DNA of 64,000 bases, taken from positions 97,413 through 161,412 of the IMG/VR virus record IMGVR_UViG_3300035498_000621, one strand, 5' to 3'. Made by a program: the position numbers and the translations under genes. Below the pieces are notes generated by a model, which had not been told where the DNA came from, searched no databases, and saw only the letters and a program-made list of their open reading frames with translations. The stretch is from a virus (taxonomy: Duplodnaviria > Caudoviricetes). Positions 2,280-63,458 of this stretch are shown piece by piece (position 1 is the first letter of the stretch; every line of letters starts with the position of its first letter).

Positions 2280-4430
2280 TTATAGTAATTTATTTGTATT
2301 ATCAATTGTATTATTAAGAATCTCTTCTACTAAAAGTTTACCTGCTTCTATAGCAGCTTTATCTGAACCGTCTTTAGCTAATTCTTCTAATTTTTTAGTA
2401 ACTTCAAGTCTAAATATAATTTCTTCACGTTCTATTTCAGCTTGTTGTTCTAATTCTCCACCTTCTTTTTCAGCTACAACAGGTATCCCTTTTTTAGTTA
2501 AATTATCTGCATTCTCCATATGATGAAGTCTAGCATGAAGTGCTCCTTCAGGAATTACATTAAATGAACCACCCTCTTTAAATTCAGGTATTTCATCTTC
2601 TGGTTCCATTGCCATTATAATTGAATTAATATTTAATGTTCCTCCTTTTTTAAAACCTTCTGTTGCATCTTCTGGTTCTTCTGCTATTAATATAGAATTA
2701 TTAATATTTAATGAACCACCATCTTTAAATTTTTTAGCTTCATCAAGTTTATTTTTTCTTACATATTTCCAATAAGGATCACTTTTTATTAAATCCCATT
2801 CTTTTCTAAATTCTTTAGCGTTGTCAGAATAGTACCAATTTACTTCCATTTGATGATTTGGATGATTACTTGATTTCATATATTCAATTTCATCAGTATT
2901 AGGATTTTGAGCAACAGAATTAGCATGCCAACGATTATCATCCTAATTAAACGTAAACATACCTTTTACAATAGCTTCTGCAAAATTCTTTGGGCGACCA
3001 TTAAATTCCCAATAATCTCTTACTCTAAAATCTTTATCACTTTTCTAATAATCAGGAAGTGAATTTAAATATGATGTAAATTGAAAATCTTCTATAGTTC
3101 CACCTTTTTGATATTTTTCTTTTCTTTTAGATATATTATATTGATTTGCTATTTTTTTAGCTTGTAAAACCATACCATGTTTTCCTCTAGAAAGATATGG
3201 ATTTAATCCTCCTGATAATTTAAGACTTCTTCTAGTTCCATTTATATAAGACATTGAATTTCGTAATGCATTTTGCGTAGTAGCTAAATTATTTATTTGA
3301 CCTAATGTATACATCTAGTTACTTGCATCAGATATTTTATCCTATAAATCATCAGTTTGTCCAGTTAATCTACCAATTAATCCAACTTTTTTACCAGAAT
3401 ATTTAACAGCATCATCAATAGTTTTATTAGACGCAGTATATGAAGCTCCAATATTAGTAAATACATCTTCATCTTTAGTAATAGTATTTAATTTAGTACC
3501 TCCAAATCCATTAATTGCACCAATATTCCAATTAAAGAAATTACTTCCTAATACTGCATCAGTAGCAGTTACGCCATCAGTTCCGCCTCCTAATGCATTT
3601 AATCCTTTTCCAAGAAATTCCGCTAATTGCATAGAACCACCAACTACCATTCCAACTGGTCCAAATGCATAAGCGGCACTTTTAATAGCATCATATCCAG
3701 CATCCATAGTTTTGGTAGTATCTCCATACTAACCTTCATATTCAGTTTTTTCTGGTAAAAAATTTCCAGCAATATCAGCAACAGAACCAGCAATTGCAAA
3801 TGCATTTCCTGTTTTAGCTCGACCTAAACTTTTAAGTTTATCTGGATCTGTAATCTTTTTTTTAGCAGCATCAATTGCTTTAAGACTTTTAACAGAATTC
3901 GCAATTCTACCAGTATTTTCGCTTACTGAAGATACAGTCTATGCAGCTTTACCTCCAAGCTAAGAAGTTAATTGATTTCCTATTTTCGTTGCACTATCTA
4001 AAATTTGCTTTTGATAGTCTATATTTTCCCCAGTTAAACTTGAAATATCAATATCATCTTCTGTTTTTGTTTGATATGGTGTAAGAAAAGAAGTAGAAGG
4101 CATAGAATCATTCATCATATTCTATCCTAAATATTGTGCTCTTATATCATTACTATTCTATAATGCCATACCTGTTTTAAAATGCATATCACTCAAATCT
4201 GACTAAATACTATTTCCAAATTGTTGAGCAACATTATCATAATTAAACTACTATTGTATTGGCCATGAATCTAAATTTGGAATATCTAACTAAGACTAAA
4301 AATTATAAGAATTATTTAAATAATTGTTAAATAAATTATTCCAATAATCATATTTGCTGCCTGAGCTCTATTGATCGCTCAGGTCAGCAAATGAATAATT
4401 TTTAAAATTTATGTTACTGTCTAAACTCAT
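2280..4430 (-). CDS. putative virion cargo protein (716 aa) with Gly-rich hydrophobic segments and repeated (F/Y)xxGG motifs
   Basis: ORFs 3342-3707, 3045-3314 and 2280-2879 share one frame from ATG 4430; position just after the muzzle-like gene. Confidence 0.7.
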
Positions 4431-14851: not shown

Positions 14852-15550
14852 TTATCGTATAAGTTTGTAAGATTTATTGTTCAGTTTTCTATCCCAACAT
14901 GTTTTAACATCAAGAACTTCATCATAATCATTTTGAGTCCATTCATGATCAATTCTAGCCTAATCACATTGTACATTCCATTGCTATTTAAGAGCAGTAG
15001 CCATCTAAACAATTTGTGCATTATTAGTAAGTAGTCCTTCTTTAAATTTACTAACCCATGCACAATAAGTAGCTAATGCTAATGCTTCTTTATCAGTTAT
15101 TTCAGGCAGTCCATTATCATCAAGAACTAATCCTCTATAAAGAATATTAATTTTTCCTCCTCCGTGATTTTCAGTAAAATGTAAAGTATTTCCAACCCTT
15201 TCGTAATTAATAAATTTACCACGAGCATACTAAGGTTGCTAAAAATGTTTTCTTTCTTCTATATACTATTCTGTAGTAAATGAACCATAACGTTCTGTTG
15301 GAGAATCATTATCAACATGTTGAAAATCTTCCCATTCAGAAGTTACTGCTTCTAATATATCACAATTACATGGAAGTTCTAATGATTTCTAGCATGGTTC
15401 TATACATGTACTATATCTATATAATTTACTTCTCTTATTTCCTATTAAATTCCATCCAACTAGGGCTATTTCTTCATAATCTTCTTCTTGTAAATTAATT
15501 CCATACATAGTTTCAAGAAGACTCAATCCGTAGTGAAAATCGTTTAACAT
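14852..15550 (-). CDS. tail tubular/ring protein (232 aa)
   Basis: LELPCNC..LEAV and YRGLVLDDNGLPEITDKEALALATY motifs typical of the crAss Ttub ring protein. Confidence 0.7.
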
Positions 15551-16242
15551 TATCCTTCAGTATATTCTTGATTATTAGGTTTAAGAGGAGCTGCAAGCTA
15601 CCTATAATATCTAAGTTTTTGTTCAGTAAGTCTTTTTTTAATTTCTTGATTTATAAATGATTTATTATCATCTTGTAAATCAGTACAACAACTATAATTT
15701 TCAAGCTATCTAACATCTTTAAATATTGCAGATATAGAAACTGTACTTAACATTGGAGCATTAAAAACAAAACAATCATACATTCCATTTTCATTAGGAG
15801 CTGTATCAATCCATACATATGGTTTATTTTTACCTCTTTTTCTATATTTATGATTTCTATAATTAGATAAAGAAGTATAATATACAAATGGAAGTTGTCT
15901 ATCTGCTGATCCAATGTAATCAATAGATAATGATCCAAAATCATTTACAAGCTAAGGAATTTCAAAATGTGCCGTAGGTGTAGAAAAACATTCATCAACA
16001 TTTTTGCATCTACATCTTTCTAAGTCTTTGCAATCAACAGAAATGCAATTGATTGATATATATAAATCTCTTGCTGGAAGTATTCCTTTAAGAGAGTATT
16101 CTTTCAAAATCTAAAGTCTCATATCTATTATGTCATCTTCTAATTGTTCTAAAGACATAGACATATTAGTATGATAACCACGTAGTCCACTGACTACATC
16201 ATTTCGTATGGCAGATGCCAATTTAGTTATTTGATTATACAT
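15550..16242 (-). CDS. tail ring/adaptor protein (230 aa)
   Basis: Open under code 15 with TAATG overlap; Cys-rich middle; synteny between auxiliary capsid protein and Ttub. Confidence 0.6.
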
Positions 16243-16253
16243 AACAATAAACT

Positions 16254-16285
16254 AAAAAAGGCAAGGCTTTGTGGGCCTCGCCTTT
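16254..16285 (-). terminator. intrinsic terminator after auxiliary capsid gene
   Basis: AAGGCGAGGC-loop-GCCTTGCCTT followed by a T-run. Confidence 0.8.
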
Positions 16286-16319
16286 ATTTAACTTAACAAT
16301 TATTTAAAGTTAGAGTGCC

Positions 16320-17282
16320 TCAATCTTTAGTAGGAATAACTTCCTCCCAAACATCAGCACCTGCTGCGTCTGCGAGTTTCTTAAGAGCAAGCTCTAAATT
16401 AACTTCAGTAGCAAAATCGCCATCTGTAGTAGTATCAAATCCTTCGGCACCATCAATACCAGTTTCAGTTAGAAGTGCATCATTTACATAGAATACACTA
16501 GTTGTAACAGATTTAACTTGATGTCCTACAGCATTTAGTCCAAGAGGACCACGATTTGTGCAATAGTGAATAGTGAATTGAGTATAATGAGCACCAGGAA
16601 CAGGCATTTCATCCTGTTTAGGAGCAAATGCTTGAGTATGAGCATCTGTAGGAAGTTTAATATTTCTAAGAACCCATCCATAAGTTCCAAAGCCTTCTTG
16701 TCCTTCTTCTACTACATCAACTACACCATCAATTTCTTCCCATGCATTAGCAAATGGTTCTGCACCATCTACATATTTTTCTAATTTAACAACATGGAAA
16801 CGCTGGAATTCAGAAACAGCAGTTAGAACTAATTTAGTTCCACTAACAGTAGCTTTTACTACTTCTTTTTCAAATACTAGCAAACCATACTTTTTAATAA
16901 CTTTAATAGCATTTTTCAAAGTATCGGTAGCATTTCCAAGCCAAGGAATTTCTACAGTAAATGGACGTCCTTTGAATTGAGTATCATTTGCATAATAAGA
17001 GCTTTGATCAGCTTGAGTAAGACGAATATAAATAGAAAGTCTTAGTGTATCTCCTTTAGTAAGACCTGTAATGGCATTAAAATCAATTTCTACTTGTGCC
17101 AATTTTGGTTCAGTATAAGGTGCTTTATAGATCTTAGTAACATTGGGGGCTTTAAAATTATTTACTCCTTTAATATGAAGAGTAACATTGCCATCTTTGT
17201 CTTTACCTAATGACCACAATGCTTTATCAGTACTGAAGTCAAAATTACTATTTACTACGTGAGTTGTTGTAAAATTAAACAT
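16320..17282 (-). CDS. auxiliary capsid protein (320 aa)
   Basis: TAG-free ORF with codon usage like the major capsid gene, followed by a terminator; size and position fit the crAss auxiliary capsid gene. Confidence 0.65.
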   Translation of the reverse strand: MFNFTTTHVVNSNFDFSTDKALWSLGKDKDGNVTLHIKGVNNFKAPNVTKIYKAPYTEPKLAQVEIDFNAITGLTKGDTLRLSIYIRLTQADQSSYYANDTQFKGRPFTVEIPWLGNATDTLKNAIKVIKKYGLLVFEKEVVKATVSGTKLVLTAVSEFQRFHVVKLEKYVDGAEPFANAWEEIDGVVDVVEEGQEGFGTYGWVLRNIKLPTDAHTQAFAPKQDEMPVPGAHYTQFTIHYCTNRGPLGLNAVGHQVKSVTTSVFYVNDALLTETGIDGAEGFDTTTDGDFATEVNLELALKKLADAAGADVWEEVIPTKD

Positions 17283-22017: not shown

Positions 22018-24216
22018 TTAAAATTCTTTAACTTCAAAATTTTTAGTAGAATCATCATAAGTTCCACTTACATAATAAGATTTATCAGAAGAATAGCTTA
22101 TATTTGTGTATTTCATTTTAAGTAATTTTATATTAATTTGAGGAATACAACGTGAAATTATTATATTATCCTAATCTATATTAGAATCAGGAGTATCCAT
22201 TAAATATTCATCATCTATTCCTTCAGGCTAATCAGTACGTACACAAGTTCCTACAGTAAACTATATATTTCCATTTGTAGAATAACTATTTGCTGAAGTT
22301 TGAAAATATAAGTCTACATTCACCTAATTAATATTATTAGATTTAGATATAGAAACATTTGCAGATCCATTAAATAAAACATTTCCCATATTTCTTATAT
22401 AAATAGGAAATGATGAAATATTCCAACCTACTTCATCTGAATAAAATGATTTTCTAATTTGAAGAGAATCATTATCAAATATTCCATTATAAATATAATC
22501 TCTCCAAAGCATTTCAAACCATAATTTACATTCCCATGGTTTTGTTTCCCATAATTTAGGAGATGACCAAAAATTAGCTGTAGAATATTTTGTTTTTTCT
22601 TCTTTATATTTAACACCTTCTAAATTTACATCAATACTACATGTTTTATCAGATGTATTATTTTTAAATCCCCAATATATATTATTATGCGATGCATTTA
22701 AACATGTATTTCTATCTTTATTAAAATCATTAATAGATGTTAATTCAATAGTACGATCATAGAATAAATCTATTACTCTATATCCAGTTCCATTTAATAA
22801 ACTTTCCCAATAACTAATTGTAGCATTAGATTTTAATTCAGTATCACAACGCCATATATAATAAAATCCATCAACATATGGAACATTATTTGTATCAATA
22901 TCTGATAATGTTAACATTTGTTCATATAAATCAGCGGGATATCTCTATTCTCCATTATTATTAGCAAGATAATTAATTGTAGGTTCTATATATCCAGATA
23001 AAATTAATTTATTTTTCTAATATCCGCAGACATAACCAGCAGGATAATAACAAGCTGATGTTCCATCTTCATATATAGTTCTGCTTATATCAGAAGATGC
23101 AAAATATTTATAATATTCTCCTTCATCAATTATATGAAATTCTTTAACTAAAGTCCAATTTCCAAGACCATCTGAATACCAAAGATAACCATCATCATTA
23201 CTAGTACAACTATCAATATCAGAACCAAGATATTGTGGAGAACTAGGCAATAAATTTCCATCATCGTCGGATTCATTAGTAGCTGAATAATAATATCCAA
23301 TTTTCTAATTACCAGATGATGCTGTTTCTACATTTAATCCATCTCTTACTACTAATTTATCAATTTCTAATATTGATTTATTATTTAATAAATATAATTT
23401 AAATCCAGATCTATCTGTAGCATTTGGAGATTTAAATGAATTAGATATAATATCAACATTTGATAACAATTCATGATCATCAATTGTAATTATATTATCA
23501 TCATTAACATTAAATTTAGTTCCATAAATAGTATCAATATTTAAATAATTATCTTCAGAATATAAATAGACTGAATCAAAAGTTAAAGAATTGCCAATTC
23601 CAGTACCTTGAATAAATAAAGAACCATCCACTGGATTAGAATTAGCAATTATAAATTTAGAAGTAAATGGATTAGGAAAATCAGTGGTAAATTCAGATAA
23701 TTCTCCATTATTTACTATATATAATTTTTTAGTTGATTCTATATATACAATTCCATACTAAATACTAGAATTAAAAGATTCAACATCATCATATATAAAT
23801 CCAATATTTTTTAATGCTGTTAATTTCTAATCACTAGTAGTATCTTGTATATCTAAAAAAGAAACATAAGTATTTCCAGATTCACCTATTATATTAATTA
23901 TATTTGATCCGGATTTAAGATAAATTGAACCATCATCAAGAACATAAATTCCGTCTTTAGATCCAATTTTATCATAAGTTTTTACTTTAAATAAAAATGA
24001 AGTATCTACATTTAAATCTCCATCTTTAATAATATCTATATATTTATTACCCCACTAAACTTTAACTTGACCTTTTGTTTTTAAAATTAAATCTGAATTA
24101 GAAGTTCCAAGCTAATTATATGATCTTCCAAATAATTGTATATTATTTTTACTTTCTAGCTATTCTATTCTAGATTTTAAAGATTCTATTTCTTTAAGTA
24201 AAGATGATTCTGACAT
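22018..24216 (-). CDS. putative tail fibre/spike protein (732 aa)
   Basis: ORFs 23305-23631, 23017-23250 and 22324-22917 are in frame with ATG 24216; beta-rich, aromatic-rich C-terminus. Confidence 0.55.
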
Positions 24217-24827
24217 TATTTAATATTAGCATATTCAGTTTTTGCATCAAATGATGGACAATCCTTATTAGCAAATTCTCTATGTCCATGAATAGTAGCT
24301 TTTGGATATTTAGATTTAAGCTATTTCAATAATTTAATTAAAGATTCTTTTTGTTTATCAGTTCTTGTGTCTTTAGCTTTTTTATTTGTACTATCCATGC
24401 CACCAATATAACATATTCCAATTGATTTACTATTATGTCCTGTACAATGAGCACCAATTACATTTTCCTATCTTCCAACATTAATTGAACCATCACGATA
24501 AATTACATAATGATATCCAATATCTTTAAAACCTCTAGCTAAATGCCATTCTCTAATTTGAGAAACTGTATAGTCTTTACCTTCTGGAGTAGCTGAACAA
24601 TGAATTATAATTTCAGTAATATTACGAGTATTAGAATTTGCATTTAAACCAAGTGCTTCCCAAGTTTTATCTCCTACTATTCCATCAGCAATTAATCCAT
24701 TGGTTTTCTAAAATTCTTTTACAGCTTCTTCAGTAACTTGTCCAAAAATGCCATCTGCTATACAATTTAATTTTTTCTAAAGAGTTTTTACATCCTCTCC
24801 TTTACTTCCAAGTTTAATAGTAGTCAT
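24216..24827 (-). CDS. endolysin: PG_binding_1 domain plus N-acetylmuramoyl-L-alanine amidase (T7 lysozyme-like), 203 aa, 4 TAGs
   Basis: GSKGEDVKTLQ...DGIFG..T..AVKEFQ..NGL.ADGIVG; IIIHCSAT, DIGYHYVI, GAHC.GHN, GHREF..KDCPSFD; absent from the ORF track. Confidence 0.92.
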
Positions 24828-46058: not shown

Positions 46059-46877
46059 TTATTTTTTCTTTGGTAATTCCCATAGCATATTACGATTATT
46101 TATCTATCTAAGACTATCAATATTTTGATTTTTTATATATGTATTATATAAATTTTCATATTCTTCTTGAGTCATAGGATTAGAAAACTCATAATCATCA
46201 TAACCACTTTTTTGTTTATAATATCCTGATATAGGAAGCGACTACCAATATTTAACAAATTCTTCTGTTGGAACATCTGCATTACCAATATATTTATTTA
46301 AATCTTTATTATTAAATAATTCGTCATTAGCAAAATAACTAAAATTACTCTATCCGTTTCCAGAGAATAATGGCCTTTCAGATGTATATTCATATATTTG
46401 TCCATTACCAAAATCTAATACATCTGAAAAAGTTGGTGTATTAATATCATTATCTCTAGTACCAATTGGATATGTAACTTTATAACGAGTTACTTTATTG
46501 TTTAGTGTAAGTGGTCCTGCTGGATTTTTATCTTTAATTATTTTTTTTTTGATAATATTTAAATTATTAATACTTTTATTATTAAGTTCTAATGACCGTA
46601 TTAAATCAGTAACATCTCTAGTTTGTTGCAGTATAGATTCTATATTTATATTAGATGTATTATTAAGATTTATTTTATTTTTTTTAATTTCATCTAATTG
46701 CGCATTATTATATTCATTAGTTTCATTACGATAATTATTTAATCGTTTTGCTATTTCATAAGAATTTGTACTATCTAATAAATGACTAGGATATTCATGA
46801 TTAATAACATCAGAAGTATTTAAACCATCTTGTCCTTTATTGATTAATTCTTTTTTTTTTTTGAAATGGATAACCAT
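46059..46877 (-). CDS. Asn-rich hypothetical protein; possibly the frameshifted C-terminus of 46837-47265
   Basis: Open under code 15 to TAA at 46059; begins within an A12 tract. Confidence 0.55.
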
Positions 46878-47265
46878 TTTCGGCTTTTCTCATTTTACGA
46901 CCACATTTAAATGCATCAACGACATTAGTAGGAGCTTCTCCACCACCTTGCATTTTTTGTTTTTTCATGCATTTTTTACATAGTCTGCCACCAACTTTAA
47001 AGTATTTAGGTTCTTGACCTTCTGGGCAAAGACCTTTAAGATTACGAATATAATTTAGTTTAGCACCAAATCTAGCAGCTTGCACTTGCTGTTGTTGCAT
47101 TTGTTGAGCAACAGCTTGAATCATTTGAGCTAACTATGCTGCTTGTTGGTCTCCTTGCTAAGCAGCTTGCATAATTTGCTAAATTTGTTGAGTAGCCTGT
47201 TGATCGCCTTGCATAGCTGCTTGTACTAATTGAATAATTTGTTGTTGTAATTGTTGTTCGTCCAT
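46837..47265 (-). CDS. Gln-rich protein with QAAxQGDQQA repeats and a Cys-containing basic C-terminus (142 aa)
   Basis: MDEQQLQQQIIQLVQAAMQGDQQA...; 3 TAGs lie in poly-Gln context. Confidence 0.8.
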
Positions 47266-49748: not shown

Positions 49749-49789
49749 TATGATATTACAAATATAATTATTAAATTTGAATGTTCAAA
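49749..49789. promoter_or_regulatory. overlapping divergent Bacteroidota sigma promoters
   Basis: Minus: TTTG(49789-86)-N19-TATATTTG(49766-59), exact. Plus: TATG(49749-52)-N19-TAAATTTG(49772-79), one mismatch at -33. Confidence 0.65.
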
Positions 49790-49812: not shown

Positions 49813-50175
49813 ATGAATAAACATAATTTCAATTTAAGTGACTTTTCCAATATAGTTAATTAGCGTTCGGAAAAGAAAATTTAGCTTATTCCAAAATTTA
49901 CTTTAAATTTTAATGAAACACAGCCTATTTATAAAAAAGGTGGAGAAATTAAAATTAAAAAGAAAAATATTGGATCTTTTACTAAATATTGTGGAGGAAA
50001 TGTAACTTCAGAATGTATTAGAAGAGGTAAAAATAGCCCAGATCCTAAAATAAGAAAAAAAGCTACTTTTGCAGCTAATGTTAGAACATGGAAACATAAG
50101 AACGGAGGAGTTTTTAAAAATTATAATATAGATAAACTTAATTATCTAATTAATAGTTTGAAAAATTATGTATGA
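49813..50175 (+). CDS. small basic conserved crAss protein (120 aa)
   Basis: YKKGGEIKIKKKN.G.FTKYCGG.VTSECI..GKNSPDP.IRK.ATFAAN.R.WKHKNGG; missing from the ORF track. Confidence 0.8.
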
Positions 50176-51322
50176 TAATTTTTTTACAATTTACGAAGCA
50201 ACAGAACCGCCTCCAATAAAAAGAAGAACTGATTCTAAAGATAAAAATGATTCTGAAGAAAAATTAATAAATGATTTAATTGATTATTCAATATTATCAA
50301 CTTCAGATGATTTAGATAAAAATGATTTAGATGAACCAAATATTTTTTCTGATTCCGATGATTAGAATTTATTTACATTTCAAACAGATGAATTACCAGA
50401 AATAACTCAATAGCCAAATAATTCTTTAGCTAATAGAGTTGTAAATTTAGCTAGAAGTTTTGTTGGTGGAAAATATATATATGGAGGTAGTTCTCCTAAA
50501 CAAGGATTTGATTGTTCTGGTTTAATAAGTTGGGCGTATAAATAGAATAATATAAATTTAGGAAGATCTACATATGAAATATTTAAAGCTGGAAAAGAAG
50601 TAAAATTGTCTGATGCAAAAATTGGAGATATTATATGTACTCCTGGTTCTGGAAAAAGCGGAAGACATGTTAAAATGATTAGTAAAATTGATGATGAAGG
50701 AATTCATGTTATTGAAGCAAGAGGAAAAGATGATGGTATTGTAGAAGACTTATTAACAAATACAAGTAATATTATAACTATTAGAAGAATTATTGATGAT
50801 AATTAGTAGGTAGCTCCTACTAAAATAAATGGTAAATTTTCTAATAAATAGAGTTTTATTTAGTCATTAACTTCTTCTTATAGACGAGCTTTATTAAATA
50901 ATGACATGGATCCTGATTGGGCACCAATGTTAGTAACATCAGCTTCTATTGAATCCGATTGGGGTGCTAGTCCTAGTGGTTCATATAATTATGGCGGAGT
51001 AAAAGTAACAGATGCTCAAATTAAAAATGGAGTATCATATACAACAAGAAGCACAGTAGATTATATTCCAGGACAAGGAAATAAACGTAGAGATTAGCCA
51101 TTTAGAAATTTTAAATCAGTTGATGATTATTGTAATTATATGGTTAAATGGTTAAAATCTAGTGGAAGATATGGAAATATTTTTAATAAATATTCTGCAA
51201 ATTAGCCTATGCAAGCATGGGAAAATATATTAAGAGCAGGATATGGTGGCGGAAGTGATTCAAACATAAAAAAATATATGGAATGGATGAAATCTCGTTA
51301 CAATTCAATAAAGCAAGCATGA
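50168..51322 (+). CDS. NlpC/P60 peptidase fused to GH73 glucosaminidase-like domain (384 aa)
   Basis: Y.YGG..P..GFDCSGL..WAY...GDII...HV; then IESDWG....YNYGGVK...FRNF.SVDDY...AGY. Confidence 0.85.
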
Positions 51323-51546
51323 GTTGGTTAAAAGAAAGTAATAGGCAAAAACATTTATTGTGCGCAATTCCTATTGGTTTAATATTTACAATTTTAGCAG
51401 TATTAGGGTGTGCATTTGGTATGGAATTCAAAGATACACAATACGGCAATGAATTCGATTGGTTAGATATTGCAGCAACTATGATAGGAGGATTAATAGG
51501 TCAAATTTTATAGATAATTATAATATTATTAATTATATGGCTGTAA
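51319..51546 (+). CDS. small membrane protein (75 aa)
   Basis: MSWLKESNR.KH...MEFKD...FDWLD.AAT.IGG; ATGA overlap. Confidence 0.75.
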
Positions 51547-53495
51547 AAGTTTACGGAAAAGATATAACCTCAATTAAAACTCCTTTAAAAATTCATTTAC
51601 CTGACGGTACAATAATGAATTTTAAAAATTCTGAAGAAGCATAGAATTGGTTTAATGCTAGCAATTATGCCGATACTTCTAGTTTTTAGGATTATGAAAC
51701 TAATAATTTAGTTACACCTGAAGCTAAAGAAATTGTTGTAATACCAACTTCTCAAAATAAAGGAATTGATACTTATATTGGAGCTAATTATAATCCAGAA
51801 TTTAATAAAGTATATAATAAAATGGGAATGAATCCAGTCAATTGGACTGATTTTATTCCTAAATCTTATTGGGATTCTGATGTTCATAAAAATATAAAAG
51901 AAGGATTTGATATAGCTTCTGTAGTTCCTGGATCAATGATTTTTTCTGCTGCATATACTGTTCCAGAATTAGCTGGAGCATTAAATTTAAAATTTGCATA
52001 TGATGGTGCTAAAAAATTAATAAGTCCAGAAGGAGTATAGAAAACATATAATAAATTTAAAGAAGGAGATTATAAAGGAGGAGCTATAAGTGGTGCTGGA
52101 GATTTATTTGATGTAGCTATGACATTGCCAGTTTTAAATACAGTTACACGAGCATCGTATAATGCAGCTAAACCTACTATAATAGGATTTAAAATGAATA
52201 ATGAACTTAATAAAACTCCTATTATAGAAAATGAAACTCTTCCATTAAATATAGGATGGGGGCCTAAATAGACAATTGCTGTTACTCATAAATCTAATCA
52301 TGCTGCACCACCACCTTTATATAATGAAAAACGTTGGGATGTTGTTAACGAAGGAGCTAATCCATTTGGAATATGGTGGTAGGGTAAATGGGGAATTCCA
52401 CGTACTATTGAAACAGGTAATACTGTTAAGCAAGCACAAAAAGCACTTAATGCTAGAAATCTTTTTGCTAAACGACCATATACTCATTCTGGTGAATTAA
52501 CATTAGAAAAACCAATAGTTACTGTTGGTGATGTTCCAAATCGTTCTACTTTATCTTATTAGGCAGAATAGTTAGGAGCTGATGGAATTATTTATAATAA
52601 TGTATATGATAATGGATTTAATAATAATTAGGTAATATTAAGTTTTAAACGTCCTGATAATAATAGTATTAATTCTGAAGTTAAAAATTCATTTTCTATT
52701 AATTCAGATAATAATTCTTATTATTGGAATGGTCCAATGACTACCTGGGATAATTTTAATATTCCTCAATATAAACAAGATTTATTAACCGGTAAATAGG
52801 AATTTATTGATTGGATGAATAATCCAGAATATATTAAGGCAATGTATGCTAATAAAGCAGAAGCAGAAAATATGGGATTATTTTATACGCCAATAATCGA
52901 AAAACCTGAATATTAGCAAGCTGTAACTAATTTTAAACCTACTTTACATACTAGTTTAAATGGAGCAAATGGACAAATAGATTTACAAAATGATATTCCA
53001 GGAGTTATACATTTATCTAGTAAAATGAATATGTCTGCTACTCCAGTAACAAGACATGAACTTGCACATAGTGCTCGTTTAGCATATCCTACTACTGGAG
53101 ATATAAATACTAGAAAAAAAGAACTTGAATATTTACGATTTAAAAATTCACAAGTATTTAATGATTCGAAAGCTGATTTAACTAATGTTGCTGGAAATAA
53201 TTTTTATGATTTTAGTTCAACAGGTTACCCACATGAGGCTGTAACAAATGCTAGAGATTTAGGAGCAAAATATGGAATTAAAGTTGGACAAGAATATCCT
53301 GGCGACTAGTAGGTATTAGATTTATTAGAAACAATGTATAATAATCAATAGCTAGGAAGTTTTGGTAGTAAATTTATTGAAGCTTTGAGAACAGATAAAG
53401 AACATCTTAAATATGTATGGAAAGCATTGAATGGAACTTAGTGGAGCCTTCTTCCTTTTATAATAGGTGGTACAATAATAAATAATAATAAATAA
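51537..53495 (+). CDS. modular effector-like protein: shared N-domain, ART-PolyVal-like domain, zincin metallopeptidase (652 aa)
   Basis: THKS...GIWW...LTLEKP...LGADGIIYNNVYD; HELAH plus downstream HEAVTNAR. Confidence 0.75.
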
Positions 53496-53504
53496 TAATA
53501 AATA

Positions 53505-54497
53505 ATGAATACTATTGAACGATTTAAAGAAGGAAAAAAAGTAAAAACTAAATATGGCGAATATTCTGTCGGCTCTTTTATAAAAGTAAAAGGAGAAAAT
53601 TATTGGAGAAGAATAAATTCTGATGGAAAAGCTACTATAGTTGAAAAAGGAAAATAGAATGATAACGAATTGCCTTCAAAAATAAGAAATGAGCTTATAA
53701 AATCTTCAGGAGGAGTTCATGGTAAAGATGGAAATCATTGGACTAATAAATTAGTAAATACTTATTCTTTTATAACTAATATTTCTGGAGGGTGGATTTT
53801 AAATAAAATATTAGATGCTACAGGAATTAATAGTAAAAAATAGAATCTTATTTTAAGAAATACAGAAGGAGAAGGAAATGGCTGGGATTTATTATCAATA
53901 GCTACTGGTGCTTTTAGAAATAATTATTATGATGGAAAATTACATGATAATAAAGATAAAAAAAATAATGGAAGAATAAATGCACAAAATATATATTCTA
54001 ATAATTTCTATGAAGATAATAGAAATTTAATTAATTTATATACTCAGCAAAATGATGCTGGATTTGAGTCAAGCAAATTAGGATTAGGATTATATAAAAA
54101 TCATCCAGAATATTCTAAATATCCTGCTTATGAAGGTAATTTTTATGGAATAGATACTCTTTATTTACCATCTAGTTCAAAACAATATTTTAAAAATAAT
54201 TTAAATTCTAATTTTAATCAAGATCATGATGTTTTAATAAAAGGGATGAAAAGTTTTGAAGGATTAGATGATGTAAGAAATTATAATATGACACCTAAAT
54301 ATATAGATGGTAAATATTATGTTGATATGGAAGATGTATGGAATTTAGATAAAGCTGGATTTGATTCTAGAAATTATCCATTTATTCTTAATTAGAGAAT
54401 TCCTGTAATATTTACAAATGATTAGGAAAAATTAAATATTGTTCCTGAATTAAGTAATTGGTTTGATATTCCAAGTTCATGGAGTATAAAAAAATAA
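53505..54497 (+). CDS. hypothetical protein (330 aa) with N-terminal RFKEG motif
   Basis: Continuous frame under code 15; C-terminal DDVRNY...EDVWNL. Confidence 0.75.
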
Positions 54498-54504
54498 ATA
54501 AATA

Positions 54505-54750
54505 ATGGTTTCTTTAGAAATAAGAAAAGCTAATAGAAATCTTCTTCGATCTAGAAAAAATAAATGTATTTTATGTGGAGAAGATACTTATTGTTGTTTA
54601 GAAATGCATCATATTAAAAATAAAGAATATAATATTTCTAAAGCTGTATAGAATTTATCAACAGAAAAATTTGAAAAAGAATTAGATAAGTGTATATGTA
54701 TATGTAGTAATTGTCATCATAAAATACATAATAATATAATTTAGTTATGA
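54505..54750 (+). CDS. small HNH endonuclease (81 aa)
   Basis: CILCG...CLEMHH...KC.CICSNCHHKIH. Confidence 0.85.
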
Positions 54751-55229
54751 ATTTAATTTCAAAAATTAATCGTAAAATAAATAAATTTCAAAATGGCGGA
54801 ACTCCTAATTATTTTAAAATATATGGAATGAATCCAAACAAATTTACTTCTATGTTTTAGGCATTAATAAATAGGGGTTTATCTAATCAAGTTGCTTTTG
54901 AAATAACTTGGCAAAGTAATAAAGAAGTTCCAAAAGGATTTTATAGTTTTGGATCTAGATTTAATAATGTTGATGATTGGGCTGATAATGTTGTAAATCA
55001 TTAGCTAAATAGAAATATTTATAAAAATGCAAAAAATGCTACTAACTTTCACGAATATCGTAAAGCTACATTACCATATAATAAAGAACCAGGATATACT
55101 GAATGGCTTCAAACTGGAAGAGATTCTGGTAAAGGATTTATAAATTCATATATAGAATAGAATAATCTTGGTGAACCAGTAGCAATGAATTCTAATAATG
55201 AAAATTTAGATGATATATTTAATGGATAA
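54747..55229 (+). CDS. hypothetical protein, possibly divergent lysozyme-like fold (160 aa)
   Basis: N-terminal KFQNGG; AL.NRGLS.QVA..I..QS.KE helix and YN...Y; fold call is weak. Confidence 0.6.
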
Positions 55230-55243
55230 ATTTAATAATTATT

Positions 55244-56119
55244 ATGGCTTTTACATATAACGCATAGAAAAAACGATGGATTGATGAAGATGGAAAAATA
55301 ATTCCATTAGGTAAAGGTTTCTGGAATCAAGCTGAAAAAAGATATTATATGTATGGTTCTGATGGTACAGTTACAAAATATTCAGTACGTGAATGGATGA
55401 CCAAATAGCGTGACGATTTACAAAGAAAAAAATTAGAACTTGAAGCTAAGCATGCAATACCAATGGGAGGAAGTAGTATGATAAGAATAACTCAAAATAA
55501 TCCTGGCGGTACAGATCATAATAAAGACAGAGGAGCATATATTAATCAAGCTCTTGTTGATTCATTACTTAAATATGGTAAAATAGAAAATTTACCAAAA
55601 GCTGAAGCGTTAGGTATAGGTGCTTAGGAATCCACATCAGCTAATCATGAAGGACGTATCACCGATGTTTCAAAAAATAAACAAGTTTTACCATTTTAGC
55701 CGGACCCAAATAGCAGCCCATTAGCAAATATTGTTAAATCATATACTTATAATAGATATGGAAATATGGATATTTTAGAAGATCCATTAACTGAAAGAAT
55801 GCAATCACCTGTAGAGTTATTGAGTAATTGGCATTATTTTAGAGAAACTCCTTATAATTCATTCTTAAATGAATTAGAAAAATATGATTCAGAAGAAGAA
55901 AAAGATGAAGCTGCTTTAAGAGGAAGAGTTTATACAGAAAATCAAGCTGCAAAATATCAAATGTTAAATCCAATATAGGATGCATTTAGATACTATAAAA
56001 CTGGTGGTTATAATTCAGGAGATCCAGATTATATGCAATTAGTAAGACAAAGAGGAAAAGAATTATTGAATAGTCCAGAAGTAAGAATGCTTGTAAATAA
56101 TTCTAAATATAATTATTAA
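55244..56119 (+). CDS. lytic-transglycosylase/lysozyme-like protein (291 aa)
   Basis: ALGIGAQES (catalytic Glu position) and YNSGDPDYMQLV motifs. Confidence 0.65.
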
Positions 56120-56120
56120 T

Positions 56121-59100
56121 ATGAGTACTTTAAAGAACATAACTAATATACCAGGCAAAATTAGAATTAATTTACCAGATGGAACTGTTAAAGAATTTGC
56201 AAACGCATAGTTGGCTCAAGAATTTTTTAATAAAAATTATGGTGATAATTATTCATTACAAATTAATTCTGCAGAAGATAATGATGGAAATGTAAGTGTT
56301 AATGGTGGAGAAAAAAAGGAATTAGAAGTAATTTATAATTCTGATAATACTAATAGTGAATATAATGATCCAGTTAGAAGTGAAATTTTTAATGGAAAAT
56401 ATAATGGCAGATCATTTTCACCAACGCCTCAAAATATACAATATTATTTAAATCTATACGATAGTGATAAGAAAATAAATAAAGAGTATAGTGATACACA
56501 ATGGGCTAAATTATTTGGTGGACATGCATTAGCTGGTATAGGTATTGCTGGAGCTGCTACTGCTCCAATGTGGGCTCCTGCTGTTGGATCGTGGATTGCT
56601 AATACTGGAACTCCTTTATTAATGCAACATATAATAGCTCCAACTGCTGCTGGTATGCTTTGGGATGAAGGACAAAAGGCTTTGACTGGAACTACTACGA
56701 CAGAACAAATAAGTAATTATTTACAAAATAAAGGATGGAATCCTATAGTAGCTGATGCTGTAGGAAGTACTTCAAATCCTGGATATTGGATAAATTTTGG
56801 AGGAGTTGGAAAATATACTAAACCATTTTTTAATAAAATTGGAATAGGTCTTTAGCCATTTTTAGGCAATATTGAACTATCTCCAACTATGTAGGCAAAT
56901 ATAAATGCTTTGATACCTAAATCTAAATTTTAGACTAATGTTGTTGAACCAGTTAATTCATATATTGATAAAAATTTACCTAATGCTGTTCGATATTGGA
57001 CTAATCCTAATTATAGATTAAAAGTAATTAATGCTAGAAAATTTAAAGACGGAATAAGTAGTGATAAGTTTTTGGATCCAATTAGAATAGAAAGAGATAA
57101 TAAGTTAAAAATAATAGGTAATAAAACAAAGTTAGTAGAGGATCAATAGGCATCTACAAATCGTACTTTAGATCAAATGCAATATAAATTTAATAGTTAG
57201 TTTTATCGTAAATATGATCCAACCACTAGAATGTTAAAATATTGGGATGGGCCAACAACATTTACTAGTTTTACTCATTTTGAAAAACCTGATTATATAA
57301 CATATACAGATGAATTAGGTAATATATTTAATTCTGATATAACTTCTGTATCTCCTTCAACAAAAAAAATATCATTTAATATACCTAAAGGTAGATATAA
57401 CCATTTTGATAACACCCCACTAATATCGTATAGTGAAAACGGTTCATATGAATCATATTTTTTACAATAGCCAGAAGAATTAATTAGCGCAATATCACAA
57501 AGAAATAATAGACTTAGAAGTATAATAGGGGATGATGGAGTTATAGGCGGCAGTGGTTCAGTAATGGAAAATGGAACAATAGCAGGATCTCCAGATGATG
57601 ATGATATTATTACTACTGTTACTAGACTTCCTTCTTTAATGCAAAAATTAAATGCTAGAAAAATTGTTGATTTACCTGGAAATACAGGTATTAGAATAGA
57701 ATCTAATAATTTAAAATTAAATAAAGATAATTAGCATATAGGAGATGTAGATATAATATATGAATAGAATGGACATGCTATTGGTAAATTAGCTCATGAA
57801 TTATATGAAATATTTTATCCAACTGAATATAAACAAATAAGAGAATCATTTAGAAATAATACAGCATATCAAGAATATTTAAATGGCGGTTATTATGATA
57901 TAAATTCAATATCAAATACAGAACTTCCAGTATCATCAGAATAGTTATATTCATTAGTTAAATAGAATCCTGAAGTTAAAAGCTTAATGGATCTTTTATT
58001 TAGTCATAAAGAAAAACATAATAAAAGAGCATTTACTGCAATAATTTAGCCTAAAAATACAGAATTAGTTAAAAGAATGATTGATGCTAAATCAACATCT
58101 TTATATGGAGAATCTATAAAATTACCACAAGGATTTGATTTATCTAATATTGAAGCAAATAAAGAATTACTTAATAGATATGGTCTTCCTGTAGAACTAG
58201 CTTCTAATAAAGAAGTGATGGAAAATATTTCTAGATATTTATATTTATCATAGGGTTCTATAACCAGAGGTGTTAAAATAAGACATCTTAAAAATAATAA
58301 TGGAGAATATATTGATCAATATAAACTTCCAGTAGATGAATTTGCAAATATTTTATCTGGAGCGCATAATATAACATATTCTTTACAAGCTGGATCTGCA
58401 TCTGGTATTGGTGGCAACTTTACTTTAGGAAGTAGAGGAGGAGGAACATTTGGCGATGATTTATCAATTGGATTATTAAATATCCCTGAAGAAATAAATA
58501 ATCCTATAAAATTATATAATTATCTATCTCAAGAAGAATCAAAAATTACTAAAGAATAGGCTAATTAGATTAATACTTTTATGCGTGATAATAATTTAAA
58601 ACTTTATGGTATTAGAGATCAATTAAAAGAAGGTGATCAATATAGATATGTTTTAAGCGCAATTAGCGATGCAGATAGTAAAGAGAATAATCAAAAAATA
58701 TCAGAAATATTACAAGTTCCATTTTTAAAAGGAGATCCATATTATAATTCATTTGATAATATGCCTGGTAAAATAATTCCTAATTATGTTGGGGTAATTA
58801 GTGATAATGCTTTTAAATCAAGAGGATTTACTTATTCAAAACCTACTGATTTAAATTTAGAACATGGATCTTTTAAACCATTCTATAATTCTGGTATGCT
58901 TATTACTGGTAATACTCGAATATCAATCGACGATACTATAAATATGATATCATCTTTTTCAAATTTTGAAGGAAAAGATAGATTAATATCATTTTTAAAT
59001 AAAGTTAAAACTCAAGTAGATAGTGATGCTAAACTCACATAGAATTATTCAAATAAAATAGGATATTTAACTAAAGTAAGAAATATATTATAGAGTAAAC

Positions 59101-59450
59101 ATACTAATTTAAATACTGAATATAATTTTACTTTGAATTCATATAATAATAAAATTAATAAAATATATGCCAAATTAAAAAATGCAAATGATTCTTATTA
59201 TCATCATTATACTCAAGAAAGAGAAATTGCTCGCGATATACAACAGAAAGCTAAAAAACTTGCTAATATTTCTGTAGGAACTATTATTGCTGCGGCATTA
59301 GCTGTACCAGCTGGTATGAAAATTAATTCTTCAATTGAGGAAGATAAAAAAATAGAACAATGGTATAGAGAGCATAATTATTCTTTAGATACAGATTTTG
59401 GCGAATTGTCTAAAGAGGATTAGGAAAGTTTTTTAAAATTATTTGATTAA
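56121..59450 (+). CDS. modular effector-like protein: shared N-domain, hydrophobic segments, pol-beta-family nucleotidyltransferase-like domain (1109 aa)
   Basis: VIGGS...G...G.PDDDDII and a later GDVDII; four ORF fragments in one frame. Confidence 0.75.
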
Positions 59451-59451
59451 T

Positions 59452-60174
59452 ATGCCTGATTATACTAAACCAATTATTAATTATACACCTCCTAAAAGCG
59501 ATAGTCCAGAAACTATTGCGTGGCTAGCTAATTGGCTAAATAATAGACGAGAATAGCTTTATAATAATTTAGGAGGAATATTTTCATGGAGTGGTTACCA
59601 TCCAAATACATATAATATTTAGCAAAGACAAATGGCAAGACCTGGATTCAATAAAAGAGTTTATGTAAATAAAAATTTTTATAGCCAAATAGAAAATGCT
59701 GCTTCTGCTAAACTTTATAATCATGAAATAAATGATTGGGATAAGGGATTTGCTAGTGGATATTATAGTCTTAATGATCATACTATTCATATATTGCCTT
59801 ATTTAGCTAATAGAGAATCCCATGGTAATACAATACTTCATGAATATACTCATGCTATGGGAGCTGAGCCATAGAAATATACTATTAGAAAAATAATGCA
59901 AACATCTAAAGTAAATAAAGATTGGAATAAAGATGGATTGTATAGCGATTCTAGTATTAATTATTTATTAAATCCTAGTGAAATATATTCTAGAATGATG
60001 GAATTTAGATATGAAAATAATATTAAACCATAGCAAATAATAGATTAGAAATTTTTAGATTCTCATAGAGAATCAATAAAAAATAATGAATTAGATATGT
60101 TCAATGATGAAGATTTAATAAAATTATTTAATGAAGTTGCATATCAACCTAAAGAGACAAATAATATGGTATAA
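59452..60174 (+). CDS. zincin-like metallopeptidase (240 aa)
   Basis: GYY...HTIHI...ILHEYTH...YLLNPSEIYSRMMEFR. Confidence 0.85.
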
Positions 60175-60185
60175 ATATTTTATTT

Positions 60186-62168
60186 ATGGCTAAAACTAAA
60201 TATACAAATATAACTCATATTCCTGGTTAGATAAAAATAAATCTTCCAAATGGTTCAGTAAAGACATTTGCAAATTCTAATGACGCTTAGAAATTCTTTG
60301 ATGAAAACTATGGAGAAGGATATTCAATAGAAGTAACTTCTTAGACAGATAATAACGGAGAAGTTACTATAAATGGAGGAGAACTTCCAGAGCTTATTGT
60401 AAGTAATAAAGCTACTAATAAATCAGTGGATCCTATTAGAGAAGGTATTTTCGAAGGTAGATATAATGGTAGAAAATTTACCCCAACTGATGCTAATATT
60501 AAACATTATCTTGATTTATATGAATCAGACAAACATATTGGAAAAGAATATGGAGATAAAGCTTGGGGTAAGGTATTTGGAACTCACGCACTTGCTGGAG
60601 CTGGAATTGCGGCAGGAGCATATGCTTTTCCATGGATAACTGCTAATATATTTCCTTATCTTACTGCTAATGGTTGGCTAGCTTCTACAACAGCAACAGG
60701 TACTACTCCAGCGTGGTTAACTCCTACTACTGCAACAGCTATTGATGCTACTATGGCAGGATTAGGAACTGGAGCATCTGTTAATGATTTAGTATAGAAT
60801 GGACCATCAGTTGGCAATGTAACTGGTACTGCATTAGGAGGATTAGGATTAGCATATGAGGCATTACCTGTAATTAAAGAAGGAACATAGCTCTTAACAA
60901 ATTGGAGACCTTATTTACCATTAAATCCAAATAGATACTATAGAATTGTAGGAGCTGCAAATAACCCTAATGGAGATGCTATTCTTGACGCTAATTTAAC
61001 AGGAGTAATTAGGAGTAATGCTACTGGTAAAAGTATGACATTTATAGATAGTGAAGGTAATGCTCATTCATTTGGTAAATCTTTTGATTACCCTATGTTT
61101 TCTAAAGGTTTTCCGTGGAGAGGAAGTACTAATGGTGCTGATTCTAAAGGATTTAGAGTAATTAGGAGTAAAGCTGATACTGGGCCTATTAAATGGGAAG
61201 AATCTAATATTGATTTTAGACATAAAGGACATAAAGGAATCTTTAGACCTAGATATAATGGAGATTTACAAGCATCTCCTACTGAATATTTTGAATATTG
61301 GGAACCTGCTAAATGGTTTGGTTGGAATAGAAAGAACTTTACGAAAGTAAATAATTCTGTAAATAATTCTGTTAATTATGGATTAGAAAATTTTAAACAT
61401 ATTATAGATAGTGAAAAAGATCCTGATTTAAAATCAAAATTAATTTAGATGTATAAAGATAAATATCCTGAAAATGAAGGGTATTTACGCTATGAAGATG
61501 AATTAAATAAGTATCTTGATCTTTGGTATAAATAGGTTACTCGTCCTCAACTTTAGTAGTAGGGAATTACTAATGTTCCTGATAATCTATTTTTTTAATC
61601 CAAAATGGTCATATGGATTTTCAAATCAACCTGTAGTAATAGTTAGTCATTCTGATGGCCTTCCAGAGAATTCATTTGGAGTACATTATACTATGTCAGG
61701 ACATAATTATGTTATTGATGACCTAAATTAGGAACGTTTAAATAGTCACGGAATACATGAAGCAGTTTCTCATGGAACAGATATGTTTGTTGTTAATATA
61801 AAAACAAATATTAGACATTTTTAGATGAAATTGCTAATAATAGCGGACTAAGTTTTAAAACTAGAGGAGAAAATTGGCAAGAATTACGTGCTACTTTAAA
61901 TCAAGTAAAACATAGTTTAAGAAAATATTTCCCATTAAAAGATGGAAAACTTGTAATAAATGAAGAGAGTGTTTCAAAAATTCCAGAAGACGAATTATTA
62001 AATGCTTTAGAATATTCTAATGGTTACGCAGAAGATGATTATGTCCCGATGATTAATTCATTAGATGAAAAAACTAGATCTGAAACTATAAATAAATTAC
62101 GTAAGCTGTTATTACTTCCTTCTATGACAGGAATTACATATAAAACATTAAAAAATAATAATGAATAA
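60186..62168 (+). CDS. modular effector-like protein (shared N-domain, possible ART-like domain, HExxxH zincin-like domain) interrupted by two compensating homopolymer indels
   Basis: Paralogous N-terminus to 56121; TAA at 61596-98 after a T7 run; HEAVSH in the +1 frame; original frame resumes near an A5 run at 61800 with WQELRA. Confidence 0.7.
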
Positions 62169-62170
62169 CA

Positions 62171-63121
62171 ATGAAATATTATGGCGATGAATAGCATCCA
62201 ATAGAATTAAATTCAGTAACAATAACTTATAATAAAAAAGGATACTTAGATAAAATTTTAGATTTTATAAATGATGAAATCTTTTTAAATAGGGATAATA
62301 TAAGAACTAATAATATTAATAATAATCCTAACGCTCTTGATAATTTTGATATTGCAAAAAATGTTACAGAATTTACAAATATATCATCATTGGGCCTTAT
62401 TAATAGATTTTCTCCTACACAAAATATTAGATTAATGCTTGATGCATTTAAAGGGAATAATATAATTGATAGTTGGTTTGGAAATAATGGTATTGTTTCT
62501 GACAATTTTGCAGACTCATATCCAAAATTATCGTTTGCTATAAATGGAATTGCTGATTTAGGAACAACTTCTTTTTCATTAAAACCGTTTGATTATGGTC
62601 AATAGTATAAAAATTTATCAGGGAAATGGAATAATTTTGGATCAGAATCTTATGTACGATTATCAGATAATGTTGTTCATAAAATACCTCAAAAGCCACT
62701 AAAGTATAAATTTCAAATACCTTTTGCAGTTAGATCGAAATTAAATGCAAATAGATATAATAGTCAAGTTCCATACACATATAAAGGTTATTTAAAAAAT
62801 AAATCTGGATATTACCCAATTTACGAACAATCTAAAGTAGAAATCCCTCCTAGGGGATCAATTTTAGAAACCAAAGCATATAATGACGTAATATCTTCAA
62901 ATGCTAAAGAACCTTTAAGAACTAAATTACAATATAATATATTTGATATAGATATAGGACATAATATAGGAATATTAAACGGAAAAGGAGTAATGTATGA
63001 TCCTATACTAAGTTAGGGTATAGTACCTCCTATAGGTAGTTGGGTTAATAGAAATTTTATATTCAATTATAATATGCTTCCTATATTATCAGGATTAAAT
63101 GGGTAGATAGTAGATAAATAA
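62171..63121 (+). CDS. Ser/Thr kinase-like protein (Kinase-PolyVal-like, 316 aa)
   Basis: FGSESYV...VVHK, YPIYEQ, FDIDIGHNIG...VMYDP. Confidence 0.7.
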
Positions 63122-63327: not shown

Positions 63328-63343
63328 ATAATTTTATTATTAG

Positions 63344-63430
63344 TTGCCTCTCTAGGATTCGAACCTAGACTAACGCCTTCAAAGGGCTACAGATTTAGAG
63401 TCTGCCGTGCTGCCATTACACCAAGAGGCA
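63344..63430 (-). tRNA. amber suppressor tRNA (anticodon CTA) on a tRNA-Gln-like body
   Basis: Acceptor TGCCTCT/AGAGGCA (U1-A72); D arm GGTGTAATGGCAGCAC; anticodon arm GCAGA-CTCTAAA-TCTGT; T arm CTAGG-TTCGAAT-CCTAG; no encoded CCA. Confidence 0.93.
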
Positions 63431-63458
63431 ATATTTAGCTGGAAATCCAGCTAATATT

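Follow-up and report, generated by a model that had tools for sequence, protein, structure and literature searches.

A TAG-recoded gene island with a conserved head and an exchanging body, a candidate cargo module of a crAss-like phage

In polymorphic toxin systems, reportedly including phage toxins fused to the MuF domain, very diverse C-terminal enzymes follow a conserved N-terminal part that serves trafficking. T7 gp16 has a lytic transglycosylase domain that cleaves the cell wall. The ejection proteins of T7 and P22, as well as Alt and the internal proteins of T4, are packed into the capsid and leave it before the DNA or together with it, and Alt is an ADP-ribosyltransferase (ART) (cited in PMC5512222, PMC10172136). 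Polyvalent proteins (Iyer, Burroughs, Anand, de Souza, Aravind 2017, PMC5512222) are characterized by zincin-like peptidases with HExxH or HExxxH sites, pol-beta nucleotidyltransferases (NTases), ARTs, truncated kinases and wall hydrolases, and the small open reading frames (ORFs) next to them have already been noted to resemble exchange cassettes. In crAss001, cargo protein 1 (gp45) has been found in virions by mass spectrometry and partly resolved by cryo-EM in the tail barrel and the capsid; it has an N-terminal transmembrane (TM) helix and was proposed to exit the particle N-terminus first, gp45 and gp46 were proposed to be channel formers, and cargo sets are known to differ between crassvirus groups (Bayfield et al. 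2023, PMC10172136). Here we analyze an island of 12 genes at positions 49813-63121 of a 64,000-nucleotide stretch of DNA (hereafter the window), which is the final 64 kb (positions 97,413 to 161,412) of the 161,412-bp IMG/VR record IMGVR_UViG_3300035498_000621, a virus of the Caudoviricetes. An earlier note, made from the sequence alone, had described this region as a set of modular, effector-like genes delivered with the virion; its observation of the gene array is partly confirmed and its interpretation as an effector system partly supported by the analysis presented below. We read the island, with about even confidence, as an accessory module of cargo or ejection proteins of a TAG-recoded crAss-like phage, which would make it a split and diversifying set of virion cargo.

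The window is AT-rich (G+C ~27%) and encodes the terminase, portal, major capsid and tail genes of crAss type on its minus strand, with the island divergent from the block of the large terminase (TerL). TerL is only ~27% identical to that of named crassviruses, and 57% and 43% identical to those of two unannotated human-gut phage contigs. The genome falls into three parts: plus-strand early genes with nearly no in-frame TAG, an 83-kb minus-strand late module rich in TAG, and the plus-strand island at the far end of the late module. In-frame TAG makes up 1.84% of codons in the island, 1.36% in the minus-strand virion module and 0.20% in the early genes. Translation table 11 yields only fragments of up to 214 amino acids (aa) on the plus strand between 49.8 and 63.1 kb, while reading TAG as glutamine yields a continuous array, in agreement with the earlier statement that the genes can be seen only under code 15; the island homologues on other contigs are likewise translated only with TAG as glutamine. 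A suppressor tRNA with anticodon CUA (63343-63430, minus strand, found by ARAGORN) allows translation of the island and virion genes. This tRNA is labelled 'Pyl' by ARAGORN, and the residue most often found opposite the window's TAG sites in standard-code homologues is glutamine (6 of 17 aligned sites), which favours glutamine weakly. Because the island is recoded in the same way as the virion genes, the proposal that its genes are late is supported. Standard-code annotation hides this whole gene class.

With TAG as glutamine, the array comprises 12 tightly packed plus-strand genes encoding, in order, proteins of 120, 384, 87 (probably 75), 652, 330, 81, 160, 291, 1109, 240, 470 and 316 aa, which confirms the number and common orientation reported before. 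All junctions are either overlaps or gaps of 0-14 nt, and therefore the array reads as one operon. For the same reason there is no room for immunity genes; no small ORF follows the payload genes at any junction, and the earlier remark that cognate immunity genes are missing stands. A promoter-like block of 23 nt, AAATATAATTATTAAATTTGAAT, lies on the plus strand at 49760-49782, 31 nt upstream of ORF1. It is nearly invariant across six related phages in which the flanks have diverged, and it is unique in the window even when up to 3 mismatches are allowed. Within it, TAAATTTG fits TAnnTTTG, the -7 consensus of Bacteroides promoters. A scan for sigma-70 promoters remained at chance level (116 sites versus 109 expected), and a terminator search returned, as its sole hairpin-plus-T site, 63435-63454, which lies past a convergent small ORF and the tRNA. 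Of the single promoter and single terminator once suggested to bound the island, the former thus has a good candidate, but the latter does not.

The link to virion cargo is provided by the first gene. ORF1 (49813-50175, plus strand, as are all island genes; 120 aa) is a stand-alone homologue of residues 342-439 of crAss001 gp45, with 45% identity over 101 aa (E=2e-22, BLASTP). Segments of this kind were identified by tblastn in 40 Crassvirales records, where the matches are located inside gp45-type proteins. In Bajarodcaudo virus 1, the gene that follows the muzzle gene encodes such a segment, then Phage_lysozyme2 and then the crAss_CARG1 portal-binding domain, and this order of segment and lysozyme matches that of the island, in which ORF1 is followed by hydrolase(s). 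ORF2 (50168-51322, 384 aa) overlaps ORF1 by 8 nt and encodes an acidic leader followed by an NlpC/P60 domain (aa 100-172, Pfam 4.3e-14) and a GH73 glucosaminidase domain (aa 254-376, Pfam Glucosaminidase 3.2e-7); its PHROG relatives are tail or virion proteins, and its tblastn matches are hydrolases from the structural regions of Gram-positive phages. The third gene encodes a small protein with two hydrophobic segments (51283-51546, 87 aa as listed), which probably starts at the ATG at 51319, overlapping the ORF2 stop, to give 75 aa. It matches the uncharacterized phrog_38535 (1.4e-10), and no holin PHROG was matched. This two-TM protein (51319-51543) is 70-82% identical in relatives, the adjoining hydrolase being ~42% identical in the same phages. 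A canonical amidase endolysin is encoded within the virion module (24216-24827, minus strand; Pfam Amidase_2 7e-18, phrog_822 2.8e-62), and ORF2 would therefore be an extra hydrolase that is not needed as a lysin. The same amidase is 69% identical to that of a standard-code phage (L012). The most economical reading would be that elements which are united in cargo protein 1 in other crassviruses gave rise to the conserved head of the island.

Behind this head, the larger proteins are built on a shared N-terminal module (N-module). The first ~216 residues of the 1109-aa and 470-aa proteins are common to both (44% identity, E 1e-42 to 1e-50), and the first ~75 residues of the 652-aa protein are shared with the two. 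A profile of the module, searched against 1.84 billion representative proteins, identified 82 protein clusters (52 at E<=1e-10), in which it is always N-terminal and in which the proteins reach 1353 aa. Among the 69 proteins in which at least 120 aa follow the module, at least 20 classes of tail can be told apart that are unrelated to one another. Together with the sharp differences between close relatives at this locus, this bears out the mix-and-match character that had been inferred for the island. Among the members, Pfam finds ART-PolyVal in three (1.2e-12) and Kinase-PolyVal in two (1e-5, just under the cut-off), and some members pair Kinase-PolyVal with a conserved domain without an assigned fold. 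No PolyVal domain was matched by Pfam in the window proteins, so that domains of this type, attributed to the island in the earlier note, were recognized in other members of the family but not in the window. No match to MuF (Phage_Mu_F) was found by Pfam in the window proteins or in 67 family members. The module itself begins with a small beta-rich domain, predicted with a per-residue confidence score (pLDDT) of 70-85, which is followed by conserved Gly/Ala-rich hydrophobic helices. It has no Pfam or PHROG model, and neither the module nor the 1109-aa protein has a match in 50,697 deposited phage genomes (INPHARED); a pattern scan of IMG/VR with the 470-aa protein gave no confirmed relatives. 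The N-module is thus an undescribed family, absent from deposited phage genomes and from the Pfam and PHROG libraries searched.

Four family members are encoded in the window, namely the 652-aa, 1109-aa, 470-aa (frameshifted) and 316-aa proteins. A fifth, of 738 aa, lies outside it, at 14940-17156 of the genome record (plus strand); it has 12 in-frame TAGs, a zincin-like HEFGH site and the same C-terminal tail, and it lacks the N-domain, as does the 316-aa protein. TAG-bearing plus-strand genes are found near the contig start, among TAG-free early genes, at genome positions 5425-5673, 6253-7602, 8061-8705 and 14940-17156; if the genome is circular, they fall ~5-17 kb past the island. The island is therefore not self-contained, as a fifth member of its family is encoded near the contig start and, in relatives, a zincin-like gene of the island occurs elsewhere.

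Comparison with related phages, in which an invariant locus would have spoken against the earlier interpretation, revealed extensive variation. In contig L008, the flanking proteins are 83-93% identical to those of the window (TerL 93%), yet the island is different and much shorter. ORF1, the hydrolase and the TM protein are retained (74%, 68% and 81% identical, respectively), a Phage_lysozyme2 gene that the window lacks is present, and the product of a single modular gene resembles the 652-aa protein only in the first 441 residues, with Kinase-PolyVal at its end instead of the zincin; the next eight island genes of the window, including that of the 330-aa protein, are missing. In the more distant L002, L003 and L005, the locus comprises ORF1, the hydrolase, an optional tail lysozyme, the TM protein and one modular gene (1059-1193 aa) with a different make-up in each. 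The triad of ORF1, hydrolase and TM protein is kept in all relatives, each of which also keeps at least one modular gene. In L014, the payload of the 652-aa protein, i.e. the conserved domain plus the zincin, is found at 67% identity on another N-terminus, preceded by a gene homologous to that of the 240-aa zincin-like protein. Homologues of the latter gene occur within the island in L014, downstream on the opposite strand in L005 and inside the structural operon in L013, a 175-kb phage, where the flanking genes are the ring-1 gene and one with 88% identity to window 15550-16242. In two standard-code phages, N-module genes are located beside the family of the 291-aa protein or upstream of virion genes. 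Since L008, with structural proteins ~90% identical, has a different island, the locus is hypervariable and consists of a conserved head and a rapidly exchanging body. The zincin-like gene of L013 (L013:10001-11607) is right beside a NUMOD-type homing endonuclease, and the window island also holds an HNH gene; because of the former adjacency, the arrangement suggests that island genes may move with the help of endonucleases.

The payloads can be assigned to known folds to different degrees. The clearest case is the 1109-aa protein (56121-59450), which comprises the N-module (aa 1-290), a domain with the pol-beta NTase fold (aa ~450-665), a long helix (~950-1040) and a C-terminal hydrophobic segment (1044-1068). 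Its AlphaFold2 (AF2) model has pLDDT 80-96 across aa 445-710, and the Foldseek list for the NTase region consists nearly entirely of pol-beta NTases, the best E being only 0.017. The four top matches of VIA, an all-against-all aligner, are all NTases (ANT(2'') with Z 8.0, LnuA 7.0, MenT1 6.8 and TM1012 6.8), with 145 residues aligned to ANT(2'') at a root-mean-square deviation of 4.3. The signature GS...DxD...D is conserved in 12 of 12 aligned sequences. As the minimal fold, the G[GS]...[DE]x[DE] pattern and a third carboxylate are all present, the modelled fold and the alignment support membership in the pol-beta superfamily, in accordance with the NTase-like domain named in the earlier note; most of the other payload labels were not confirmed by profile or fold searches.

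Three zincin-like domains had also been proposed. Their motifs, together with a downstream Glu, are conserved in the family alignments, but the sites HELAH, HEYTH and HEAVSH have no profile match in Pfam or PDB. The 652-aa protein (51537-53495) consists of the N-module (aa 1-174), a conserved domain (aa ~190-420), which the earlier note had called ART-like, a zincin-like C-terminal domain with HELAH at 507 and a downstream Glu, and a hydrophobic LLP...NNNK tail; its AF2 model has a mean pLDDT of 40 and is confident only in aa 1-70, and a VIA search with it returned only generic helical hairpins. In the 240-aa protein (59452-60174; alignment A7), HEYTH occupies residues 130-134, and H130-E-x-x-H134 and E177 are invariant among seven homologues, the family having no profile match in Pfam or PDB. 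The third N-module gene is the 470-aa ORF (60186-61598), which continues to 62170 (60186-62170) via two frameshifts. The read-through part encodes an HExxxH zincin-like domain (HEAVSHGTD, WQELRAT) and an LLLLP...NNNE tail, and the frameshifted fragment matches the family members P0027 and P0047 at 1e-8. The frameshifts compensate each other, one in a run of seven T near 61590 and the return near 61815, and read-through would give ~660 aa, like P0027 (671 aa); they could reflect genuine decay of the gene, programmed slippage or an error in assembling the homopolymer. The C-terminal domains of the 652-aa protein, the frameshifted paralogue and relatives align on HE(xx/xxx)H, the downstream Glu and the hydrophobic tail ending in NN[NE][KR]. 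The 316-aa protein (62171-63121) matches P0087, P0067, P0069 and P0073 down to 7.6e-49, and because these matches begin at residue ~55 of the members, it lacks the first N-domain of ~50 aa.

Other labels given to the payloads found no such backing. ART-like domains were not confirmed in the window: Pfam gives no match, the AF2 model of the 652-aa protein is poor, and comparison with the ART-PolyVal segment of P0031 gave hhalign probabilities within 0.3-1.8%, the range over this and the kinase comparison below, with templates of one or two sequences and hence low power. A kinase-like domain in the 316-aa protein was not confirmed either, with no Pfam match and an hhalign probability of 0.3% against the Kinase-PolyVal of P0023 and P0036, at the same low power (templates of one or two sequences). 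Searches of PDB with phmmer and hmmsearch gave nothing usable for the 1109-aa or 652-aa proteins, PADLOC found no matches for the island proteins, and a BFVD fold search gave no significant viral analogue. As for the wall hydrolases, the NlpC/P60+GH73 protein described above stands, while the SLT-like assignment of the 291-aa protein (55244-56119; alignment A6) is based on motif only (ES...YNSG, within the invariant ALG..EST and YN(S/T) motifs); this protein has only two homologues among 5.8 billion proteins, no match of its family profile in PDB and no similarity to the Phage_lysozyme2 protein of L008, and its homologue P0091 adjoins an N-module-family gene in a standard-code phage. The 160-aa protein (54747-55229), which has an N-terminal KFQNGG motif, was listed as a possible lysozyme; it has no Pfam or PHROG family match and no similarity to the Phage_lysozyme2 proteins of relatives, and the label found no support. 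The 81-aa protein (54505-54750), on the other hand, is an HNH endonuclease, as had been suggested (phrog_2255 6.5e-16, plus seven further HNH PHROGs), and is probably the remnant of a homing endonuclease. The 330-aa protein (53505-54497) has no match in Pfam, PHROG or PADLOC and no assigned function; its N-terminus, MNTIERFKEG, is similar to the motif located at the joints or tails of family members.

A short motif, [FYH][KQ]xGG, recurs in the late proteins. It is found there 13 times, whereas 300 shuffles gave an expectation of 1.5 +/- 1.2 and never more than 6; this is a ~9-fold excess, and early proteins have no copy. Proteins encoded just downstream of the muzzle gene (4433-10093; Pfam crAss_MUZ 1.2e-22) include one of 716 aa with four copies and one of 103 aa with a copy at both ends; the former has only a weak TM-like match to gp45. 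ORF1 carries two motifs, which are part of its gp45-homologous stretch, and further copies are located at the N-terminus of the 160-aa protein, at the N-termini of the tail-lysozyme and amidase proteins of relatives and at the C-termini of 13 N-module proteins. The loci are window 385-696, 2280-4430, 4433-10093, 46837-47265, 49813-50175 and 54747-55229, and genome 94758-97730. The motif may be a docking or processing signal. The muzzle-adjacent genes in the cargo position also include one for a DUF192 protein (window 793-1356, minus strand, 5.7e-20).

Among the described systems, the island family resembles polyvalent proteins in its predicted domain types, in its presumed delivery with the DNA and in its occurrence in a phage that packages by portal and terminase (TerL, portal, major capsid and muzzle proteins are all encoded in the window). 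However, its domains are not united in one giant polypeptide but distributed among four to five genes of medium size, every one of which brings its own N-module, neither MuF nor ArdC-N is found by Pfam in its module-bearing proteins, and the window payloads have no PolyVal match in Pfam. With regard to the presence of two or more effector-type domains per polyvalent protein, the 652-aa protein combines a conserved with a zincin-like domain, while the 1109-aa protein has one NTase and further regions. With crAss001 cargo protein 1 the island shares the ORF1 segment, and the N-terminal hydrophobic, Gly-rich segment of the former and its proposed N-to-C ejection parallel the N-module; unlike its gene, the island has a separate, divergent location that does not follow the muzzle gene, no CARG1 domain was found in the genome, and the N-module shows no sequence relation to gp45. 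Polymorphic toxins are alike in combining a conserved N-terminal trafficking part with highly variable C-terminal enzymes, and the copies without the N-domain, namely the 316-aa protein and, outside the window, that of 738 aa, resemble their orphan cassettes; the island differs from them in the lack of immunity genes and of MuF, Rhs or other known trafficking domains, and its products are presumed to be aimed at the host that the phage itself enters rather than at a competitor. To the ejection proteins of T4, T7 and P22 there is no sequence relation, and the island set comprises several genes, recombines and is specific to a clade. A 2025 paper on zeta crAss-like phages (PMC12386605) makes no mention of such an island.

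These comparisons suggest the following course of events. The island would be driven by one promoter-like element and translated only once the amber suppressor of the phage is active, so that its products would be made alongside the virion proteins. The head, i.e. the gp45-like segment, the two-domain peptidoglycan hydrolase and the two-TM protein, would most likely help the ejected material to cross the wall and the membrane. Behind it stand interchangeable enzymes, namely an NTase, putative zincin-like peptidases and several further domains, to which relatives appear to add ART and kinase domains, each enzyme bearing the shared N-terminal module with its predicted small beta-rich head and Gly/Ala-rich hydrophobic helices. 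The module may route the enzymes to the interior of the particle and, as proposed for crAss001 gp45, let them leave through the tail with the N-terminus ahead; once injected, they would act on host targets as infection begins. The set diversifies by swapping of payloads and of whole genes between phages, as the comparison of relatives shows. A bolder version of this proposal, which we put forward only tentatively, is that the 220-290-residue N-module is a leader of a crassvirus clade for virion loading and ejection that causes any enzyme fused to it to be injected; the island would then be an immunity-gene-free phage counterpart of polymorphic toxin loci, its cassettes would be exchanged partly by homing endonucleases, and [FY][KQ]xGG would be a docking or processing signal common with the muzzle-adjacent cargo proteins.

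Several observations weigh against an assignment to virion cargo. The island is located outside the structural operon, ~40 kb from the muzzle gene and on the opposite strand, and the combination of ORF2 with the two-TM protein also resembles an endolysin-holin pair. At E<=1, the crAss_CARG1 portal-binding domain is matched nowhere in the 161-kb record, an absence that is not absolute because the record is 89% complete, and a profile of the N-module has no detectable relation to crAss001 gp45 (hhalign probability 0.3%). In the module-bearing proteins of the window, Pfam recognizes neither MuF nor any other known family. Most payload identities are unconfirmed, the AF2 models being poor and Pfam, PDB and PADLOC giving no matches, and some copies may be decaying, since frameshifts interrupt one member and the N-domain is missing from another. 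Besides, packaging, ejection, the roles of the N-module and of the motif, and action on host targets or defences are all steps that we infer.

The main rival explanation, which we consider unlikely, takes ORF2 for an endolysin and the two-TM protein for a holin, the two forming a lysis cassette, and the other products for unpackaged late enzymes that act in the infected cell, in host shut-down, superinfection exclusion or modification of progeny. It would account for a hydrolase without a signal peptide beside a small two-TM protein, for a triad conserved in all relatives and for an island with its own conserved promoter-like block outside the virion operon. A canonical amidase endolysin is, however, encoded elsewhere (phrog_822, 2.8e-62), ORF1 has a proven cargo protein as its homologue, in relatives the locus also holds a Phage_lysozyme2 ('tail lysozyme') gene, and the TM protein, which matches no holin PHROG, is more conserved than the hydrolase next to it (70-82% versus ~42%). 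Improbable in our judgement is a purely structural role, in which the N-module proteins form a trans-envelope channel as parts of an ejectosome and the enzymes serve entry or maturation by wall cleavage or zincin self-processing. The Gly/Ala-rich hydrophobic helices of the module and the retention of at least one modular gene by every relative are consistent with such a role, and there are precedents in the zincins of polyvalent proteins, proposed to be self-processing peptidases (PMC5512222), and in gp45 and gp46 of crAss001 as proposed channel formers (PMC10172136). Nevertheless, a pol-beta NTase with an intact active site, ART-PolyVal and Kinase-PolyVal have no obvious structural function, and the extreme turnover of the tails is typical of conflict proteins rather than of channel parts.

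It is, finally, very improbable that the products are bacteriocin-like toxins released at lysis, with an N-module that mediates receptor binding and translocation in the manner of colicins and with payloads that kill neighbours. The joining of variable C-terminal enzymes to an N-terminal part that is conserved does recall colicins and polymorphic toxins, and late expression would permit release at lysis, but there are neither immunity genes nor a colicin-type lysis-release gene, the cargo homology of ORF1 and the polyvalent-type domains point to the virion, and the killing of potential hosts would bring no clear gain to a lytic phage.

While injected multi-enzyme proteins and crassvirus cargo as such are already known, the N-module family, the split multigene form, the turnover between near-identical phages and the stand-alone gp45 segment are new. 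Crassviruses are the most abundant human-gut phages, and what they inject besides DNA and RNA polymerase is largely undescribed. If the island is indeed a module of virion cargo, it would provide a defined leader by which the injected proteins of an uncultured, recoded clade could be recognized from sequence, more than 20 catalogued payload types in which to look for enzymes of host take-over or anti-defence, and a concrete case of a cargo set changing between phages that are otherwise ~90% identical.

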